Shown: positions 9,401 to 64,000 of the stretch, piece by piece | Layout: each line of letters starts with the position of its first letter | Position numbering within the stretch: position 1 is the stretch's first letter | Assembly: GCA_028278265.1 (NCBI GenBank) | Contig: JANQET010000041.1 | Location: 18,702-82,701, forward strand | Direction of reading: 5' to 3' | From: Myxococcota bacterium | Lineage (GTDB): Bacteria; Myxococcota_A; Polyangia; JAAYKL01 | Length of the DNA: 64,000 bases | Position numbers and translations under genes: made by a program | The notes under the pieces: model-generated | The model's database searches: none | The model's input: the letters and a program-made list of their open reading frames with translations, nothing else | Told to the model about the DNA's origin: nothing

Positions 9401-11100
9401 ACGAAATCGACGCCACCCTCCCCCTCGTCTTGGCCGATGAGAACAGACTGCAGCAGATTTTGTTCAATCTGGTAGGCAACGCGATAAAATTCACCGAATC
9501 GGGGACAGTTTCGGTTTCCGCCAAAGATAGCGGTGGCGAAGTGGAAATCGGTGTGTCTGATACCGGCATTGGGATACCGGATGACAAACTCGAGCGAATT
9601 TTTGAGTCTTTTGAGCAGGTAGACGGGGGCAGCACCCGGGCCTATGGTGGCACCGGACTCGGGTTGACGGTTACGCGACAACTCGTCGAGCTTCACGGTG
9701 GGAAGGTATCGGTTGAGTCAACTGTCGATAAAGGATCAGTTTTTAGCTTCACGTTGAAGACCGCGGGAGATGCAAAACCGATCGAGATGGGAGTTACCCC
9801 GTCTGCCCACCCCATTAGCACTATTCTAAGGACCAGCTCAAACGTTCCCAGCGCATCAGATGTGGCCATCTCTCCCAAAGAAGAGCCGGCGCCAGAGGGC
9901 GACTTCAACATTCTGATCGTCGATGATGATCCGATAAATCTAAAGGTTCTCGAAAATCACTTGTCTCTGCAGAACTACACGATTACCCAGGCGACAAACG
10001 GCAACGAGGCGCTTGCTATCTTAACATCTGGCGTGCATATCGACTTAATTCTGTTGGATATTATGATGCCCCGAATGTCGGGGTATGAAGTGGTGGAGAA
10101 GCTTCGAGGGAGTTTCGCCGCTCACGAGTTACCGGTCATTTTTCTAACCGCCAAGAATCAAGTCGCCGACTTGGTGGCCGGTTTTGCGGCGGGTGGAAAT
10201 GACTATTTACCCAAACCAATCGCCAAAGCCGAGCTGTTGTCGCGTGTGAAAACGCACCTGGAGCTGTTGGATATCAATCGCAATTTAGAGACCAAAGTGA
10301 GAGATCGGACAGCAGAGGTCGTCGAACAGAAGAAACAGCTAGAGCTCGCCTATCGCGAAGTGAATCAGACCAAGGATGCCTTGTGGGGCGAAATGCAGTT
10401 GGCCAAGAAGATTCAGGTCGTATTGGTACCAGATTGCCCCCAAATTCCGGGGTATTTCATCGCGACCCATATGGAAACCGCAGATTCAGTGGGGGGTGAC
10501 TACTACGACGTGGTGCAGGCCAACGGGAAAAATTGGCTGATTATCGGCGATGTGTCGGGGCACGGGGTGACCGCCGGTCTCGTGATGATGATGGCGCAGA
10601 CAGCGCTGCACCACGCACTCCACGCTCTGCCCACCGCAACACCGGATGAAATCTTGACCTCCGTGAACAGGGTTGTATTTGAGAATATTCAGAAACTGGG
10701 TGAGTCGAAATACATGACCCTCACCCTGCTCTCGATCGACCCGGACGGCACCATTTTTTACACCGGGCTTCATCAAGACATCTATATTTATCGCCAATCC
10801 CTGGGACAAATTGAAACCGCGGAGACCAAGGGGATATGGCTGGGGGTTGTCGACGATATAGACAAGTTAAACAGCGTGGATCAGCTGAAGCTCCAGTCCG
10901 AAGACGCCTTGATTCTCTATACAGATGGCATTGTCGAAGCGCGTGATCCGCACGGACGGTACACCAACAACCGACTCAAATCTCTAGTTGAGAAAATCGG
11001 CCACGAGCCAGTTGATTCGATTCGCGATCAAATCCTGCGCTCCCTTGAGCATTTCACACGGGACGATGATGTAACCCTTGTGGTGGTGAAGAAAGCTTAG
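6409..11100 (+). CDS. Hybrid sensor histidine kinase: signal peptide, two-component regulator propeller repeats, Y_Y_Y domain, TM, HisKA/HATPase, receiver, C-terminal PP2C/SpoIIE phosphatase
   Basis: 1563-aa ORF; probable start at 6451 (MGMFPHRKKGSKICVALAMVIAFCGSQAGAQS). Many propeller-like repeats (xxDxxGxLWIGTxxGLxxYD). H-box ANTSHELRTPLNGIIG. ATPase motifs (NLVGNAIKFT, DTGIGI, GGTGLGL). Receiver domain (ILIVDDDPINLKV...LLDIMMPRMSGYEV...LPKPI). C-terminal SpoIIE/PP2C motifs (ADSVGGDYYDV, IGDVSGHGVTAG, LYTDGIVEA). Confidence 0.85.
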   Translation: MRLPFELCSRAFILMGMFPHRKKGSKICVALAMVIAFCGSQAGAQSTNDLRFEHISTNKGLSQVSVLSMLQDRLGFIWFATQDGLNKYDGYNFTTFRNDENDESSIGDNDVWTLVQGENDEIWIGLHYAGLNRYDPRTGTFERFRHHPDDPNSLSSDNIRFLWYDTDGTLWIGTNDAGLNHFNPKTKVVTRVGFHASQEDGLDRKRVLAILRDSRQNLWIGTCGGGLSRYVPDSRTFVHSVHREDDENSLSGNCVSALLEDSRGNLWVGTSGSGLNLFNPKTGKFKRFRHRPNQPHSLGHDYITIMLRDREDNLWIGTRGGISKHNPATQTFVNYEHQTSNPTSLSHNAVYSILEDNTGTLWFGTLGGGANKFDVFTKGIKTYRHQADNPNSPSHNVVRSLLVDADDHVWISTYKGVDKYDPQNGAFAHVDLKPDAKEKGKREYIFSMSQKPPSKKASIEGPADDLWLGVFKGGIRRYNPASGTIASFKAEPGNSQSLISNDIETILTDSKGNVWIGTLASGLSKLDPQTGAYHHFRHNPDDPSSISSDAIKAILEDHQGEIWIGTKFGLNKLVADSGIFERYRYNPSSPVRLSHDSINTIYQDSRENLWMGTDGGLAKIDSRTGKQSIYAKKHGFPNLLTTCIVEDDLRNLWVGTNDGLVRFDPESEKTTVFDSRDGLQGNSFMSHSCGRTGDGMLYFGGENGLSVIDPKMIRKNEYPPPIVFTDFRLFNKSVAVAKPGESSADFRLARHISYAKALTLDYTDYIFSIEFSALNYRQPEKNRYMYQLEGLDKQWIETTAANRRATYTDLPHGSYLLRVRASNDDGVWNERASTLKLTILPPPWRSWWAYALYLVSAIALIFWFIQYQRNKVRQKQRELDKEIQISQRLRQVDKLKDEFLANTSHELRTPLNGIIGIVESLIDRHKQQSADATESNLKLIFSSGKRLASLVDDILDFSKMKNQSLALDLAAVELRPLVDVVLATSRTLIGNKPLELVNEIDATLPLVLADENRLQQILFNLVGNAIKFTESGTVSVSAKDSGGEVEIGVSDTGIGIPDDKLERIFESFEQVDGGSTRAYGGTGLGLTVTRQLVELHGGKVSVESTVDKGSVFSFTLKTAGDAKPIEMGVTPSAHPISTILRTSSNVPSASDVAISPKEEPAPEGDFNILIVDDDPINLKVLENHLSLQNYTITQATNGNEALAILTSGVHIDLILLDIMMPRMSGYEVVEKLRGSFAAHELPVIFLTAKNQVADLVAGFAAGGNDYLPKPIAKAELLSRVKTHLELLDINRNLETKVRDRTAEVVEQKKQLELAYREVNQTKDALWGEMQLAKKIQVVLVPDCPQIPGYFIATHMETADSVGGDYYDVVQANGKNWLIIGDVSGHGVTAGLVMMMAQTALHHALHALPTATPDEILTSVNRVVFENIQKLGESKYMTLTLLSIDPDGTIFYTGLHQDIYIYRQSLGQIETAETKGIWLGVVDDIDKLNSVDQLKLQSEDALILYTDGIVEARDPHGRYTNNRLKSLVEKIGHEPVDSIRDQILRSLEHFTRDDDVTLVVVKKA

Positions 11101-53734: not shown

Positions 53735-54232
53735 TCAGGAAGTAATCTCACCAAGAACGAAACGAGCGCGTTCCCGTCGCAACATCTCGAAGGGCGTCAG
53801 AAATTTTATTTTTAGTCCGATACAAGCATTTGGAATTTTTATTCTTTTCCGGGAATCTGAAAGGATTTCATGTGTTACAACGGTATGGCCATGAGCGAGG
53901 GCGTAGGCGATAAGAAAATAGTCGGCAATCTGGAGAAACAAACTCACTGCTGCCGGATCATAATCCTGACCTTGAGCCCACCTGGCTACGTCCCCTAGAA
54001 CGGTGAGCATTTTTTGGTCCGGTTGAAGAAAGAAGTTTGTGTCTCTCTCCGCTGCCCACCGGGCGAGATCATCATTACCAGCGTGTAGCTCATCTGCGAT
54101 CTTCTCAATGCTGTATACACGTTCTGCTTTGTTTTCCAAAATAAGCCAGTCCCAGAAAGCGGGACAAAAGTCCATTCCATAGTGCAAATTTTTAGCCTGA
54201 ATAAACACGTTGGCGTCTAGAAGATATGCCAT
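53735..54232 (-). CDS. DUF4411-family PIN-like putative nuclease
   Basis: MAYLLDANVFIQAKNLHYGMDFCPAFWDWL... has an N-terminal Asp in a PIN-like strand. Its size and its position immediately after an ImmA/IrrE gene match the known DUF4411 context. Low-GC islet. Confidence 0.6.
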   Translation of the reverse strand: MAYLLDANVFIQAKNLHYGMDFCPAFWDWLILENKAERVYSIEKIADELHAGNDDLARWAAERDTNFFLQPDQKMLTVLGDVARWAQGQDYDPAAVSLFLQIADYFLIAYALAHGHTVVTHEILSDSRKRIKIPNACIGLKIKFLTPFEMLRRERARFVLGEITS

Positions 54233-55374
54233 TACATCACACCCAGGCGTTGTCCGAGTGCGTTGAATGTGGTCATTTTTGAAATGCTAAGCATCCGCAA
54301 TGCATCTCGGTGGAGTGTCTGACCCTCAAGCGTGCTGATAACAAGCGCACGGGCAAAACGTTTGCTTACTCTGGCGGTTTGTGTGAGGTAGAAATTACCG
54401 CCGCTGCCCTTTGGTAGTGCCATCAAATGTGCAAGCTGATTTTCGTACGCCTTTCCTAGCTCATCTCGCGTCACCCCCCCAACGTCATAGATGCGACGCA
54501 GAATGACCAAAGTACTCGCTTTAAAATACCGGGCCAGACGATTGATCTCGTCATTGAGATTATTGGAACGATCATAAATTCTGTTCAGATGATTCAAGGG
54601 TACCAGCAGCTCCGCCGCCACCTGATTGCACCAGCTCTCGATTTGGTGAGTTGATGGTTCAAGTGCCTGAGTATCGGACAACGCCGCCTGTCCCAGCCAG
54701 ATATGCGCCAACTCATGCGCCAGCGTAAACATTTGTGCTGATTTGGTATCCCCTCCGTTAACGAATATGAGAGGTGCGAGTTCATCAGCTAGGGTGAAAC
54801 CGCGAAACTCGTGTGGATTGAGTTTTCGTTTTGTGTTGTTGCCAACAACACCACTCACCATCACTAGTATGCCCTGTTCATCTGCAAGTTCGATGAAGCG
54901 ACGCAATGCATCGGTCCAGGTTCTCATGTGCTGACGCTCTTCGAGATTGAATCCCAATGTATTCCGGATGTCCGCAGCAGCAATATTTGTATCATCAGCG
55001 AGTTTGGATGTGCCAACGAACGGTAGAGGCCCCGCTCCCATCGAACGTTCGAAATCGCGGTACCATTCCTGTCGCTGCTGGCAGAGGTGAATAGTGTCGA
55101 GCAGATCAGGACTGGGTCGGACGAGATCGGCTCTGTTCAAGGTGCGAAAGTCAGGAATTGGCACTGACTCTTTGGGAGGGGTATCAAGAAAAAAGAAGCC
55201 AATTGGTGTGTAGGTCGCCTTGGCAAAGGATTCAAGTTGTTTGAGTGTTGGAGATAGTTGACCGCTTAGCCAATTGTCGAGTTTTGGAAGTTTTTTCCTG
55301 AGATCTGTAGGGCTTTTGTTGCAACGCAGAAGGGCCCAACGGAGCATCTCCTTTTTCACATTTACTCGATTCAT
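54232..55374 (-). CDS. XRE-type HTH fused to ImmA/IrrE-family zinc metallopeptidase (COG2856)
   Basis: N-terminal HTH-like (MNRVNVKKEMLRWALLRCNKSPTDLRKKL). HEXXH-containing ImmA/IrrE core (FTLAHELAHIWLGQAALSD) followed by a C-terminal helical domain. Confidence 0.7.
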   Translation of the reverse strand: MNRVNVKKEMLRWALLRCNKSPTDLRKKLPKLDNWLSGQLSPTLKQLESFAKATYTPIGFFFLDTPPKESVPIPDFRTLNRADLVRPSPDLLDTIHLCQQRQEWYRDFERSMGAGPLPFVGTSKLADDTNIAAADIRNTLGFNLEERQHMRTWTDALRRFIELADEQGILVMVSGVVGNNTKRKLNPHEFRGFTLADELAPLIFVNGGDTKSAQMFTLAHELAHIWLGQAALSDTQALEPSTHQIESWCNQVAAELLVPLNHLNRIYDRSNNLNDEINRLARYFKASTLVILRRIYDVGGVTRDELGKAYENQLAHLMALPKGSGGNFYLTQTARVSKRFARALVISTLEGQTLHRDALRMLSISKMTTFNALGQRLGVM

Positions 55375-61471: not shown

Positions 61472-62116
61472 TTAAGGGGCGATGAGAATGCGCTGACCAG
61501 CTATTTTCGCGTGAAGCGGCTTTGAGAGATCGAATGCGCTCAGCAAGGTGAGTGGCAGGTGGAATACTACGGGGTGGTTGAATTGGATTGTCGCACAAAC
61601 CGTGTTGCCGGTGCTCGTCGGGTTGCACAGGGCCAGGGCCGGTCCGGCGCCGTCCAGCTCGACCTGCACGTCGGGTCCGTTGATGCCCGCTTGCTCCAGA
61701 AAAGCGCGCGCTATTCGGGCTCTCCCGTCTTTGCCGATATCGACGAGGCACTCGGTCTTCGCGCTGAGAGCCGATCGTTGATCCTGAATCGAGACCGGTG
61801 GTGTGGCCATTTGGCGTCGCTGGGAGCCGGTGTAGTCCTCTGGATCATCATCATCCAGGTGGTACAAGAAGGTCTGCACCTTTTTGTGCCCATCGGCGAT
61901 GACATCGATCAGGGTGCGCGTGTAGTCCTCGCCGAGATCACCGTTGGAATAGATGTCCCTCACAATCGGTGCCACCTCCCGATGCCGCACCCCCGGCAGG
62001 ACCTTCTTGACCTCGTTCGAGACGTCCAACGCTGTGAACAGGAATCCGTCGTACGTCATCGTGTCGATGACCCTCCGCGTTACCGACTCAATATCGTTGC
62101 CGTCATTTGCCGCCAT
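61472..62116 (-). CDS. Hypothetical protein co-transcribed downstream of the PARP homolog
   Basis: 214 aa with no recognisable motifs (no macro/PARG GGG...QEE signature). A 23-bp gap separates it from the PARP gene stop. Confidence 0.45.
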   Translation of the reverse strand: MAANDGNDIESVTRRVIDTMTYDGFLFTALDVSNEVKKVLPGVRHREVAPIVRDIYSNGDLGEDYTRTLIDVIADGHKKVQTFLYHLDDDDPEDYTGSQRRQMATPPVSIQDQRSALSAKTECLVDIGKDGRARIARAFLEQAGINGPDVQVELDGAGPALALCNPTSTGNTVCATIQFNHPVVFHLPLTLLSAFDLSKPLHAKIAGQRILIAP

Positions 62117-62139
62117 CGGTCATCCTTTCTATGCCGCCA

Positions 62140-63891
62140 CTATCTGTGGACGATCTCCAACATGTGGGTCATTCTCGAGGCGCGTTCGTCGAAGGTTACC
62201 ACCTCATCATGGGAGAGCTGCGGATTGCCGAACGCCTTGGCGTAGATATAGTCCTTGCCCTTTGCGGGGCGTCTTTTGTCCCAACAAGCGGTGAGGTGTA
62301 TCTCGGGAACTCCCAAAGCGAGCTCCTCCAAAAACAGAAAGCCGGCGGTTCCGGCGCTCGCCGGATTCCAATAGGCTCCGGCAATCGAAGTGTAGTTCAT
62401 ACTCTTGAGCGCACCGTTGTAACGGCAGAAGGTTTTGCCCTTCTCTTTTTTGGGCTCTCCCGCGTCCGGCCAGCAGGGCGCGTGATAGATGCCACGGCCG
62501 AATGCCTTGCCGGTAATCTGTACCCCCTTGGGCAGGTTCTCCGGCATCAAGAGACCCGAGCGGGATATGCCCATCAAGTTTTCGGTGCGCGTCCCATGCC
62601 AGCCCGGAATGATGCCGGTGGCGTTTTTCTTCTTGGTCGCAGTGGCGGCATATTTGTCGAAGCCCGTTTTTTCATCCTGGCGCTCCAGCAACCAAGCTCG
62701 GTTGACGCGCAGCTTGCCGAAGAAATTGGAATTCTTGGGCGACTGGCCCTTGTCGAAAAGCGCCATAACCTGTTGGAACATCCCAGAGTCGGGCTCCAGG
62801 AACTCGATGGTGCAATTGAGACCGTCGTACCAAACCTCCACCGGGTCGTCCGCCTGAGATGCCTGGGCGAAAACATCCTTGGCCAGATGGGCGTCCCGCA
62901 GCAGGGTCAAAAATTCCCGCTCTTTTTCAATCCGTTCCATCGTGTTGAGCAAAATGGCGTCAATATCCAGTCGCGAGCCTTTTCTCGCGTGATCGATGTT
63001 TCGCGGAATATTGGAGAGATAGTCGTTGGTCAGCTCGATGAGTTTGTTGCGCGCCGGCTTGCGTTTTTTCTGCAGCAGGGATTCCAGGGTGATCAGGATC
63101 TCGGCGCCGTGGTCGATTTGCGAGTCGTGCAGATTGCCCAGGGGCGCATCTGAAGAAGCTCCAGAAGAGGAGCTCAATCCGGATTTAATCGCCCTGCCGG
63201 TGGCGGTGTACATGGTTTTCAACAGCGAAGCCACCTGCGGATGAAATTCCCTGGTGGATTTGGTTTTCTTTTTTTTGGGCTTGTCGAGCTTGACACCTTT
63301 TTCAATTGCCCGCTGACGCTCATCCTCTTCTGAGCGCATCTCGACCTTGGTGTACCCCTTGGCTATTTTGGCCCGGACCTTTTTGTCGAGCGCTCTTCGC
63401 GCGGCGTCCAGATCAGAAAACGTCTGTTGCTGAACCTGGCCGTCGGTCCCCACCCTGCCGTAGTTGAATGTCACAACGAAGGTGCTGGGGGCCGATTCGA
63501 CTAGGGTGGCTTTGTAGAATTTATTAGAACCAAAACTCGTCGCACCGGTCTTCGCTCCCGATAGGTCAGCCCAGTTGAGGGTGACGTCTTCGATGGTGCC
63601 GGAGTCGCTCTTCTTTGACGCAGTATCTTTCTTCGAGACGGCTTTCTTGGCGGGCGCGTTCTTGGTCGATTTTTTCTTGGCCGAAGCTTTCTTGACCGGG
63701 GCCTTCTTCTTGGCTGGCGCTTTTTTTGCTGCACTCTTCTTGGCTGGCGCTTTTTTCTTTGCCGGGGCTTTCTTTGCTGGGGGCTTCTTGGCCGGAGGCT
63801 TCTTGGCCGCTTTTTTCTTGGCTGTGGCTTTTGTCAAAGCTTTCTTCTTAGCGGTCACCGTCTTTTTTGATTTCTTTTTTGTCTTGGCCAT
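62140..63891 (-). CDS. Bacterial poly(ADP-ribose) polymerase homolog: histone-H1-like Lys/Ala-rich tail + WGR domain + PARP regulatory helical domain + PARP catalytic domain
   Basis: Start [10 protein letters not shown] at 63891 with GGAGG ribosome-binding site. N-terminal ~95 aa of AKK/PAKK repeats. WGR-like block (WADLSG...[28 protein letters not shown]). Catalytic signature WHGTR...[11 protein letters not shown]...FLFLEEL aligns with PARP1 H-G-S / GKGIYFA / E988 (H-Y-E triad). Confidence 0.75.
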
Positions 63892-64000
63892 AATTGCCTC
63901 CAATAATCTGCGGGCGCTGTTAAAAAGGATTGACAATATCAGTCGCGTCTTTCAAATGATGCCTCGAAACTACTTTCCGAGGCCTGCCTTGTGTTAAATC

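Follow-up and report, generated by a model that had tools for sequence, protein, structure and literature searches.

Bacterial PARPs have been known for more than a decade; according to reviews, neither their function nor their targets are known, and they are regarded as having been acquired sporadically from eukaryotes. Animal PARP1 and PARP2 have an accessory factor, HPF1. The solved bacterial enzymes, HaPARP from Herpetosiphon aurantiacus and CdPARP from Clostridioides difficile, are DNA-dependent PAR polymerases (PMC8120803, PMC5966428) with a WGR-(reg)-CAT architecture, and an eraser, in their case a bacterial-type PARG, is co-encoded with them. Type XIII retrons (the Mx162/Mx65/Sa163 class) have been described as consisting only of an ncRNA, an RT, a SWIM protein and HEAT/WGR proteins (PMC7736814).

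Here, we analyse a PARP gene and its downstream neighbour at the end of a 64-kb stretch of DNA from a Myxococcota bacterium (hereafter, the window), show that they close a Myxococcota operon encoding, in order, an ADP-ribosylglycohydrolase (ARH), a LigA-like NAD+-dependent DNA ligase, the PARP and a partner protein, and identify this partner as a true and specific PARP companion. We found no description of the partner or of the module in the literature searched.

The PARP open reading frame starts at an ATG, and a TTG 15 codons upstream is likewise open. Pfam profiles detected a WGR domain (PF05406, residues 120–183, 7.6e-16), a PARP_reg or helical regulatory domain (HD; PF02877, residues 217–352, 2.2e-14) and an ART catalytic domain (PF00644, residues 372–472, 1.8e-07), all three above their cut-offs. 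PARP2 and PARP1 were matched at 3.5e-15 in a PDB sequence search, and the AF2 model (pLDDT 76.8) superposes on the WGR-CAT regions of human PARP1 and PARP2, its best Foldseek matches (E ~1e-25 to 3e-25). By its WGR-HD-ART order, the protein is predicted to be a DNA-dependent PARP of the PARP1/2/3-like clade, and invariant residues in the WGR domain of its homologues include W107, G145 and R146. No zinc finger or BRCT domain was matched in residues 1–95, which form a disordered tail, and this separates the protein from PARP1 orthologues; its architecture, a basic disordered N-terminus followed by WGR, HD and ART domains, is that of PARP2. Eukaryotic PARP2 (and also PARP1) has the same domain order, and a basic unstructured extension likewise precedes the WGR domain, although sequence identity between the eukaryotic enzymes and the window PARP is only ~20%.

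Table 1. Position of the genes, domains and active-site residues in the 64-kb window.
Feature	Coordinates	Strand	Evidence
PARP gene, 583 aa plus stop	62140..63891	(-)	ORF list, Pfam domains, PDB sequence matches, AF2 model
Lys/Ala/Pro-rich disordered tail (residues 1–95), degenerate PAKKA-type 5-aa repeats	63607..63891	(-)	Composition, repeats, pLDDT
WGR domain (about residues 99–185)	63337..63597	(-)	Pfam PF05406; beta-sheet and helix in model
Helical regulatory (HD / PARP_reg) domain (residues 217–352)	62836..63243	(-)	Pfam PF02877; all-helical in model
ART catalytic domain (residues 360–583)	62143..62814	(-)	MAFFT alignment with hPARP1, invariant columns, codon check
H432	62596-62598	(-)	Codon check, hPARP1 alignment
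Y469	62485-62487	(-)	Codon check, hPARP1 alignment
Y500 (= hPARP1 Y907)	62392-62394	(-)	Codon check, hPARP1 alignment
Catalytic E563	62203-62205	(-)	Codon check, hPARP1 alignment
PARP-partner spacer, 23 nt, with GAAAGGA ribosome-binding site	62117..62139	(-)	Sequence
Partner gene, 214 aa: PARP-associated, winged-helix-like plus MraZ-like double AbrB/SpoVT domain	61472..62116	(-)	
Partner N-domain (residues 5–87): three helices and beta-hairpin wing	61856..62104	(-)	
Partner C-domain (residues 122–213): two tandem strand-strand-helix-strand-strand units	61478..61753	(-)	
102-nt spacer upstream of PARP and last 7 nt of LigA-like gene (63994-64000)	63892..64000	(-)	Contig L001

The H-Y-E triad that the PARP has in common with PARP1 and PARP2 is intact, with H432, Y469 and E563 corresponding to H862, Y896 and E988 of human PARP1 (hPARP1), and these residues together with Y500 are invariant among 37 homologues. 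The correspondence was read from a MAFFT alignment with the hPARP1 catalytic sequence, and the histidine and first tyrosine were independently confirmed by the PDB alignment. The H-Y-Y-E set is also retained in every partner-linked PARP tested, including those of phages. Neither the catalytic histidine nor the glutamate has been lost, as might have marked an inactive ART, and a first-pass annotation of this DNA, which had described a PARP1/2-like enzyme, holds in that the H-Y-E site is compatible with poly-ADP-ribosylation. The annotation erred in reading the motif LEEL (E522/E523) as the site of the catalytic glutamate, since LEEL aligns with hPARP1 'LGEVALG'; the actual catalytic residue, E563, sits in SHDEVVTF ([10 protein letters not shown]). 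Compared with hPARP1 in the same alignment, the ART domain is extended by a family-specific insert (~21 aa) directly behind GIYHA, and it is missing ~26 aa of the acceptor loop.

Because the spacer between the PARP and partner genes is 23 nt long and contains a ribosome-binding site, and no minus-strand terminator-like site was found in it or in the 199 nt past the partner gene, the two genes are probably co-transcribed, as first proposed. A scan for sigma-70 promoters and terminators around them was uninformative. Whether they form a two-gene operon, as had also been proposed, could not be judged from the window, which includes only the last 7 nt of the gene upstream. A longer contig (L001), which shares 12,373 nt with the window at 100% identity, extends further upstream and, together with relatives, reveals the order retron-type RT, ARH, LigA-like ligase, PARP and partner, with 14 nt between RT and ARH, a 1-nt overlap between the ARH and ligase genes and 102 nt between ligase and PARP. 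The operon thus contains at least four genes, with the retron RT close upstream, and the eraser that had seemed to be missing lies two genes upstream of the PARP, just beyond the window.

This eraser matches PF03747 (9.2e-39), and its closest solved relatives in a PDB sequence search are DraG (7e-15) and ARH3 (1.6e-12), although it scores far under the DraG and Tri1 equivalog cut-offs. It is an ARH/DraG-family glycohydrolase instead of the PARG found beside HaPARP and CdPARP. Elsewhere within the 64-kb window we found no PARG, ARH, NADAR or second LigA, and we rejected a Herpetosiphon-type PARP-PARG pair at this locus. The ligase is full length, aligning over positions 1–652 of the 652 in TIGR00575, with Pfam aden, OB, BRCT and Ia domains, a Cys4 finger or cluster and the KxDG catalytic lysine present as KGDG; it has the Ia-NTase-OB-Zn-HhH-BRCT architecture, and it scores 426 bits with TIGR00575 (cut-off 444) and 388 with NF005932 (cut-off 369). 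The ligase and the partner, a winged-helix/AbrB protein, are additions relative to the HaPARP and CdPARP systems, and we found no mention of either in PMC4245714, PMC8120803 or PMC5966428. The set of eraser, ligase and prokaryote- and phage-specific partner likewise distinguishes the locus from eukaryotic PARPs.

The partner returned no match in Pfam, NCBIfam, PADLOC, PHROGs or PDB sequences in either single-sequence or profile searches, consistent with its initial description as uncharacterised. A profile for the AbrB-type domain (PF04014) leaves the window protein itself unmatched, although it does match one homologue from a phage and, among 60 distant relatives, 8. The structural model (pLDDT 82.6) places a winged-helix-like domain at the N-terminus, and predicts for the C-terminal domain, which carries the motif GKDGRARIxRxFLExAGI, a tandem swapped-hairpin beta-barrel of the MraZ-like AbrB/SpoVT/MazE type. 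The cryptic macro, PARG or DarG-like fold that had been suspected is therefore rejected, and the partner, like the PARP, is a real gene. Residues F27, T28, D31, H45, Y85 and Y95 are invariant, phage relatives included, and the putative recognition helix, 'RHRE', preceded by FTxLDxSN, is unchanged from Myxococcota to phages.

In the classic cases, MraZ and AbrB proteins act as transcription factors. The partner differs from MraZ, AbrB, SpoVT and MazE proteins in that a distinct, unclassified winged-helix-like domain is fused to its N-terminus, in having no sequence-level match to them, and in its PARP context as opposed to a dcw or toxin-antitoxin context. With HPF1 it has a functional analogy only, in that both are non-enzymatic and are dedicated, by genetic linkage, to a DNA-dependent PARP; the folds are unrelated, completion of the active site by the partner is unsupported, and the comparison is a lead and not a statement of membership.

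To measure linkage, loci were fetched by partner similarity alone and made non-redundant, and flanks were considered adequate if they reached at least 4 kb on both sides where no PARP was seen. A PARP was found nearby in 87 of the 104 partner loci with adequate flanks, bearing out the conservation of the gene pair; 17 (~16%) lacked one despite at least 4 kb on each side, in one case with a PARP ~290 kb away in the same genome, and a further 37 had flanks too short to judge. The linked loci span many Myxococcota lineages, where the genes occur in at least eight orders, as well as other bacteria and AT-rich phage-like contigs; Paraliomyxa miuraensis SMH-27-4 (L043) is a carrier that can be cultivated. 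Among large AT-rich viral contigs with a partner, 25 of 26 are PARP-linked, and no partner homologue was found in cultured phage genomes, though those phages have PARPs. The initial view of bacterial PARPs as rare does not apply to Myxococcota, in which this PARP clade is common (at least 300 clusters).

Across PARP-partner loci the erasers are interchangeable, being ARH, PARG or NADAR: a Myxococcota relative (L058) encodes a PARG_cat_microb protein directly upstream of the PARP, and NADAR adjoins the pair on large phage-like contigs. Linkage to a ligase is common, not universal. Neighbours in high-GC loci were called with a GC3-based gene picker in place of ORF clustering, which was swamped by antisense ORFs. 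The flanks hold ordinary housekeeping genes, and the recurrent neighbours MatE, P450, amino-acid kinase, polyphosphate kinase, Usp and VIT-VWA were judged lineage-specific housekeeping genes and not parts of the module.

Upstream of the module in this clade lie a SWIM_XIII gene (1.4e-234, PADLOC) and, following it, RT_XIII (1e-76 in L001, where the gene is partial, and 3.5e-186 in L003), both components of type XIII retrons. The ARH, ligase, PARP and partner are not among the listed components of that class (PMC7736814). An Rfam scan for the retron ncRNA gave no match; Rfam may have no model for type XIII. A 1005-aa gene also lies upstream. PADLOC has no model that fits the ARH, the partner or the catalytic part of the PARP; similarity of the PARP to WGR_XIII is confined to the WGR domain, and the ligase aligns with just 76 C-terminal residues of PDC-S48.

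The recurring gene set around the PARP points to DNA-break metabolism, and we lean, with modest confidence, towards a module of writer, eraser and ligase that responds to DNA breaks and has a DNA-binding accessory protein dedicated to it. By homology, the PARP would bind DNA breaks through its WGR domain, helped in this lineage by the Lys/Ala tail; binding would relieve the helical regulatory domain and allow the enzyme to build ADP-ribose chains from NAD+. We infer the activity, DNA dependence and targets of the PARP alike. The partner would be a dedicated accessory subunit working with the PARP on DNA, targeting or activating it or serving as its main acceptor or platform, and would not be an ordinary sequence-specific repressor. 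As gene linkage suggests, the ligase would then seal the break and the glycohydrolase strip the modification, resetting the system. In other lineages PARG or NADAR takes the eraser's place beside the PARP-partner core. The link to DNA damage proposed at the outset is plausible.

Both domains of the partner have classic transcription-factor folds, and it could instead be a sequence-specific MraZ/AbrB-type regulator with an extra winged helix that represses or activates the PARP operon, possibly together with a damage regulon, and has no direct biochemical interplay with the PARP. In line with this idea, all strict matches to the element G[TG][GC]ACAGnnTAT[GT]TCC-N8-10-CTTGAC in 920 kb, 14 in number (15 if the pattern is relaxed), lie immediately before partner genes of two lineages, the partner and LigA genes are divergent around a common promoter region of ~40 nt in Kofleriaceae and Haliangiales loci, and the partner can lie far from the PARP. 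However, neither the window nor its clade has this promoter-like element, and sequences upstream of the partner are not conserved between groups, whereas the putative recognition helix and its flanking residues do not vary among Myxococcota, other bacteria and AT-rich phages, a pattern more easily reconciled with a constant ligand than with operators specific to each lineage. Local repressors are, moreover, seldom kept beside one enzyme in many gene orders across phage and bacterial genomes. We consider a purely regulatory partner unlikely though credible; the element is compatible with autoregulation as well, a point against the accessory-subunit reading. PARP1-3 can ADP-ribosylate DNA ends in vitro, raising the idea that the PARP chiefly modifies DNA ends and not proteins, with the partner holding the ends, ARH or NADAR removing DNA-linked ADP-ribose and the ligase acting on a processed or ADP-ribose-capped 5' phosphate. 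The linked erasers do include ARH-family enzymes and NADAR, which is known to reverse DNA base ADP-ribosylation (PMC11543638, PMC11125620), the coupling to the ligase is translationally tight, and every component binds or processes DNA or NAD+. This purely inferential scheme is nonetheless very improbable: an H-Y-E triad and a helical regulatory domain are just as typical of enzymes that PARylate proteins, and PARG, the eraser at L058, acts on PAR chains.

The presence of the pair in phages and the adjacency to a retron hint that the role may lie in conflict and not in repair. In this clade, the neighbouring type XIII retron could use the module as its sensor or effector, the PARP sensing msDNA or phage DNA ends through the WGR domain and depleting NAD+ or modifying targets, and the phage set of PARP, NADAR and partner could be counter-defence. 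At least nine contigs, as judged from their matching lengths, have both RT_XIII and module genes, the 14-nt spacing between RT_XIII and ARH is seen in the source contig and its relatives, a second, divergent lineage (L152) has RT_XIII beside LigA-PARP in another arrangement, and WGR domains also occur in retron XIII accessory proteins (PMC7736814); the frequency of the PARP-partner pair beside NADAR on phage-like contigs fits as well. Yet most PARP-partner loci have no retron. Other type XIII retron loci have no module, by which we reject a general retron-PARP linkage. Type XIII retrons are inherited vertically in myxobacteria (PMC7736814), and the adjacency can therefore be explained by shared ancestry. 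The housekeeping flanks and the partial or absent PADLOC matches also argue against a conflict system, which we regard as quite improbable. Functional coupling to the upstream Mx162-class retron as such, in which the WGR domain of the PARP would detect msDNA or a disturbance of it, as retron accessory WGR domains might, and ADP-ribosylation, NAD+-dependent ligation and de-ADP-ribosylation would be the output, seems rather unlikely; if true, it would assign a function to bacterial PARPs and likewise to the classic myxobacterial retrons.

A PARP clade widespread in Myxococcota sits within a recurring set of eraser, NAD+-dependent ligase and specific DNA-binding-type partner, and the recurrence of the PARP-partner pair in other bacteria and in large phage-like genomes gives a lead to bacterial PARP function. 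We nominate the partner as a new family of PARP accessory proteins, possibly a prokaryotic counterpart in role to HPF1-like factors. The four proteins form a defined, cloneable system for probing prokaryotic PARylation, and the module bears on the question of a bacterial or phage ancestry for the eukaryotic PARP DNA-damage system.

The N-terminal tail of the PARP, predicted to be disordered (pLDDT below 40 in the AF2 model), contains 41 K, 24 A, 9 P, no R and one acidic residue over 95 aa, with 11 AKK and 6 PAKK motifs, and is encoded by about 12 (12.4) degenerate 15-nt tandem repeats. It had been presented as a histone H1-like tail and a defining, unusual substitute for zinc fingers. Residues 4–95 match Pfam HC2 compositionally at 37.1 bits, under the 40-bit cut-off, and other H1-like profiles score 37.7 against 80 (NF038053) and 18.7 against 135 (NF038052), and we rejected membership of the Hc1/Hc2/AlgP families. 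The Lys/Ala/Pro repeat composition common to the tail and to Hc1/Hc2, AlgP and Burkholderia H1-like proteins is a likeness of low complexity and not homology. In a further difference from eukaryotic PARPs, this Lys/Ala repeat is gained and lost between lineages, with many close homologues having no tail, and such a distribution does not support the tail as a defining zinc-finger substitute; where present, it resembles the basic N-terminus of PARP2.

The window carries both open reading frames described in the first-pass annotation, whose observation was confirmed and whose interpretation was supported only in part. WGR, PARP_reg and PARP catalytic domains all score above the Pfam cut-offs in the PARP protein, and among solved structures it is nearest in sequence to human PARP2 and PARP1 (3.5e-15). 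An AlphaFold model built from 37 homologues (pLDDT 76.8) superposes on the WGR-CAT structures of DNA-break-bound PARP1 and PARP2 with E about 3e-25. The catalytic and regulatory architecture is intact, and the protein adds a new member to a known family.

In an alignment of 18 homologues with the human PARP1 (hPARP1) catalytic domain, the latter independently confirmed for its N-terminal half by PDB alignment, H432, Y469, Y500 and E563 occupy the hPARP1 columns H862, Y896, Y907 and E988, and all four are invariant. The catalytic glutamate is part of '[10 protein letters not shown]' and precedes the C-terminus by 21 residues. The 'LEEL' motif previously taken as the catalytic signature instead pairs with the non-catalytic hPARP1 'LGEVALG'; despite the wrong glutamate, the proposed H-Y-E triad stands, and with it the compatibility with chain elongation. 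H-Y-Y-E is retained in all partner-linked PARPs checked. Compared with hPARP1, the family carries a ~21-residue insert behind GIYHA, and its acceptor loop is shorter by ~26 residues.

The N-terminal tail contains 41 Lys, 24 Ala, 9 Pro and no Arg in 95 residues, is encoded by about 12 degenerate 15-nt repeats and is predicted to be disordered; a histone-like HC2 match at residues 4-95 is sub-threshold in Pfam and compositional. Long Lys/Ala tails occur at related loci (L005, L007, L008, L019, L038, L039, L043 and L057), are short in other lineages and are missing from many PARPs 55-60% identical to the window protein, so an H1-like tail does not define the family. Because its presence varies between lineages, the tail is an accessory, fast-evolving DNA-affinity extension. 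The N-terminus of PARP2 is basic, and the tail is comparable to it in position and charge.

The supposed two-gene operon is truncated by the window edge. The public contig L001 matches the window at 100% identity across 12.4 kb and extends further upstream, where it adds a reverse transcriptase (RT), an ADP-ribosylglycohydrolase (ARH) and an NAD+-dependent DNA ligase; the final 7 nt of the window form the 3' end of a 660-aa gene. The earlier statement that no eraser lies beside the PARP was therefore an edge artefact, and a co-encoded eraser and NAD+ ligase accompany the PARP. Among solved structures the glycohydrolase is nearest to DraG and ARH3. The ligase is full length against LigA models and keeps the KxDG lysine and Cys4 finger, with scores only around the equivalog cut-offs. 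A GAAAGGA ribosome-binding site precedes the partner start.

Features of the PARP-partner system in the window and at related loci
Feature	Location	Strand	Details
PARP gene	window 62140..63891	minus	583 aa, ORF list
Partner gene	window 61472..62116	minus	214 aa, ORF list
Reverse transcriptase, partial	L001, order 1		14 nt to ARH
ADP-ribosylglycohydrolase	L001, order 2		PF03747, 9e-39; 1-nt overlap with ligase
NAD+-dependent DNA ligase	L001, order 3		102 nt to PARP
PARP	L001, order 4		23 nt from stop to partner start
Partner	L001, order 5		199 nt to M1 aminopeptidase
M1 aminopeptidase	L001, order 6, last listed
Type XIII retron genes RT_XIII, SWIM_XIII	L001 1-642; L003 87-3527; L005 1-3399; L010 1916-5332		directly upstream of ARH-LigA-PARP-partner
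RT_XIII, divergent lineage	L152 11045-12211		other arrangement
Conserved element	L011-L018, L024-L034, L045, L050		~60-90 nt upstream of partner start codon

The system is associated with two distinct LigA-like classes, with 'SLKGDGASAA' versus 'VTEKLDGLSLA' around the catalytic lysine and ~33% mutual identity (L028, L036 and L041 compared with L001, L007 and L008). The scores of both lie only close to the LigA equivalog cut-offs, suggesting that they are specialised paralogues.

We fetched loci from species-representative genomes, viral contigs and metagenomes through partner similarity alone and then sought the PARP by tblastn. In the resulting non-redundant set, in which some loci stem from related genomes and not all are independent, PARP flanked the partner at 87 loci (27 in genomes, 35 in metagenomes, 25 in viral contigs), versus 17 without it despite at least 4 kb on both sides (10, 6 and 1); flanks were too short at 37 (10, 27 and 0). 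The linkage is strong and phylogenetically broad. At least eight arrangements of the pair occur in Myxococcota, among them PARP>partner, partner>PARP and a convergent one, and ARH and/or either LigA class can be neighbours. The order in one relative is PARG>PARP, the partner being convergent, and one genome whose partner looks 'lonely' has its PARP on the same contig at a distance of ~290 kb. Other neighbours vary by lineage (MatE, P450, kinases, Usp, polyphosphate kinase). On contigs of intermediate GC, PARPs just ~30% identical likewise have a partner homologue as the very next gene. At L042 (about 9716-10000), only a PARP C-terminal remnant (...NDEMITYY-IETNPKAKA and stop) lies between a LigA-like gene and the partner, which indicates PARP decay while ligase and partner were retained. 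In Kofleriaceae and Haliangiales, a VIT + VWA protein follows the partner (L037 3657-5681, L044 4587-6710, L046 2991-5042, L047 7012-9063); eukaryotic vault PARP4 has the same two domains in its C-terminal half.

AT-rich IMG/VR contigs (GC 0.30-0.48, up to 480 kb) carry the set in two forms: PARP directly followed by a 220-290-aa partner, or PARP, two or three small ORFs, a NADAR gene and a 158-170-aa partner-like protein. The latter block (158-aa partner-like protein) recurs on large AT-rich viral contigs L066-L086 (e.g. L082 2148-5486), where one small ORF is phosphatase-like (phrog_335) and a GIY-YIG homing endonuclease is often next. The partner was not detectable in the cultured PARP phages Klebsiella FBKp34, Xanthomonas XacN1 and Cellulophaga phi17:2.

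The partner has 77 close homologues, the named ones all from Myxococcota; a profile search gave 1045 cluster representatives, most sharing just the N-terminal 110 residues. Its AlphaFold model (pLDDT 82.6, pTM 0.76) places three helices and a beta-hairpin at residues 5-87, from which a linker of low confidence leads to two strand-strand-helix-strand-strand units in tandem at residues 122-213; Foldseek agrees with this domain reading. Among 60 distant relatives, 8 matched MazE_antitoxin, the Pfam SpoVT/AbrB family, as did a single phage homologue. There was no sign of a macro, PARG or ARH fold; in place of the suggested cryptic macro or PARG fold, the model shows two DNA-binding-type folds. Most homologues in the closest clade carry an extra N-terminal extension of ~60-70 aa (alignment columns 1-100; e.g. 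P0005, P0021, P0039) that includes an 'AAPWAS' motif as well as a strongly acidic stretch of Asp/Glu and a basic one of Pro/Arg. This extension is missing from the window partner, and in sampled relatives that have it (L003, L010) the PARP tail is only short and weakly basic.

By homology to the characterised HaPARP and CdPARP and to PARP1-3 (PMC8120803, PMC5966428), DNA breaks would activate the PARP; the co-encoded ligase would seal the break, the glycohydrolase would reset the system, and the partner may be an accessory subunit acting on DNA. A plain repressor is a strong competing reading of the partner: members of the AbrB and MraZ families are transcription factors, and two lineages have in common a promoter-like element ahead of the partner gene. 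This element, G[TG][GC]ACAGnnTAT[GT]TCC-N8-10-CTTGAC[AC], is a candidate promoter or operator, with 14 strict matches (15 with a looser pattern) in 920 kb. Each match directly precedes a partner gene, with or without a PARP behind it; the element was not found in the window. An accessory role is nevertheless favoured from sequence comparison, because F27, T28, D31, H45, Y85 and Y95 are invariant, and S33, N34, K37, R44 and R53 invariant or nearly so, from Myxococcota to phages, and because the upstream DNA is not conserved between groups.

Functional coupling to a retron is possible. PADLOC assigned the RT upstream of ARH to RT_XIII (1e-76 for the L001 fragment, 3.5e-186 for L003) and the preceding gene to SWIM_XIII (1.4e-234); type XIII corresponds to the Mx162/Mx65 class, for which vertical inheritance in myxobacteria has been reported (PMC7736814). 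The retron-module block recurs on at least nine contigs, as judged from contigs of matching length, and L152 adds a divergent lineage whose RT_XIII scores 8.8e-147 yet is just 43% identical to the L003 RT. However, other type XIII loci lack the module, and the majority of PARP-partner loci lack a retron. At L053 (11774-13195), a type XIII retron RT has a WGR + beta-propeller protein as its immediate downstream neighbour; with a published WGR/HEAT accessory protein of type XIII (PMC7736814) and the WGR-PARP added, this means that type XIII retrons repeatedly adjoin WGR-domain proteins.

Reviews and surveys present bacterial PARPs as WGR(-reg)-CAT enzymes whose function is not known and whose distribution is sporadic, paired with PARG (PMC4245714, PMC8120803, PMC5966428), and phage PARPs are mentioned just in passing (PMC7824862, PMC9503650). 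A full-text literature search, with many subscription papers outside its scope, returned no description of the ligase link, the Myxococcota operon, the partner family or the retron XIII link. Among ADP-ribosylation writer/eraser systems, the module and the PARP-associated partner family look like a variant that has not been described before.

Elsewhere in the window (53735-55374, minus), a DUF4411 gene (165 aa) comes directly after a Peptidase_M78 gene (ImmA/IrrE-like, 380 aa) in a patch of GC 0.48-0.49 versus 0.56-0.60 around it; the two may form a small toxin-antitoxin or defence-like pair that was acquired.
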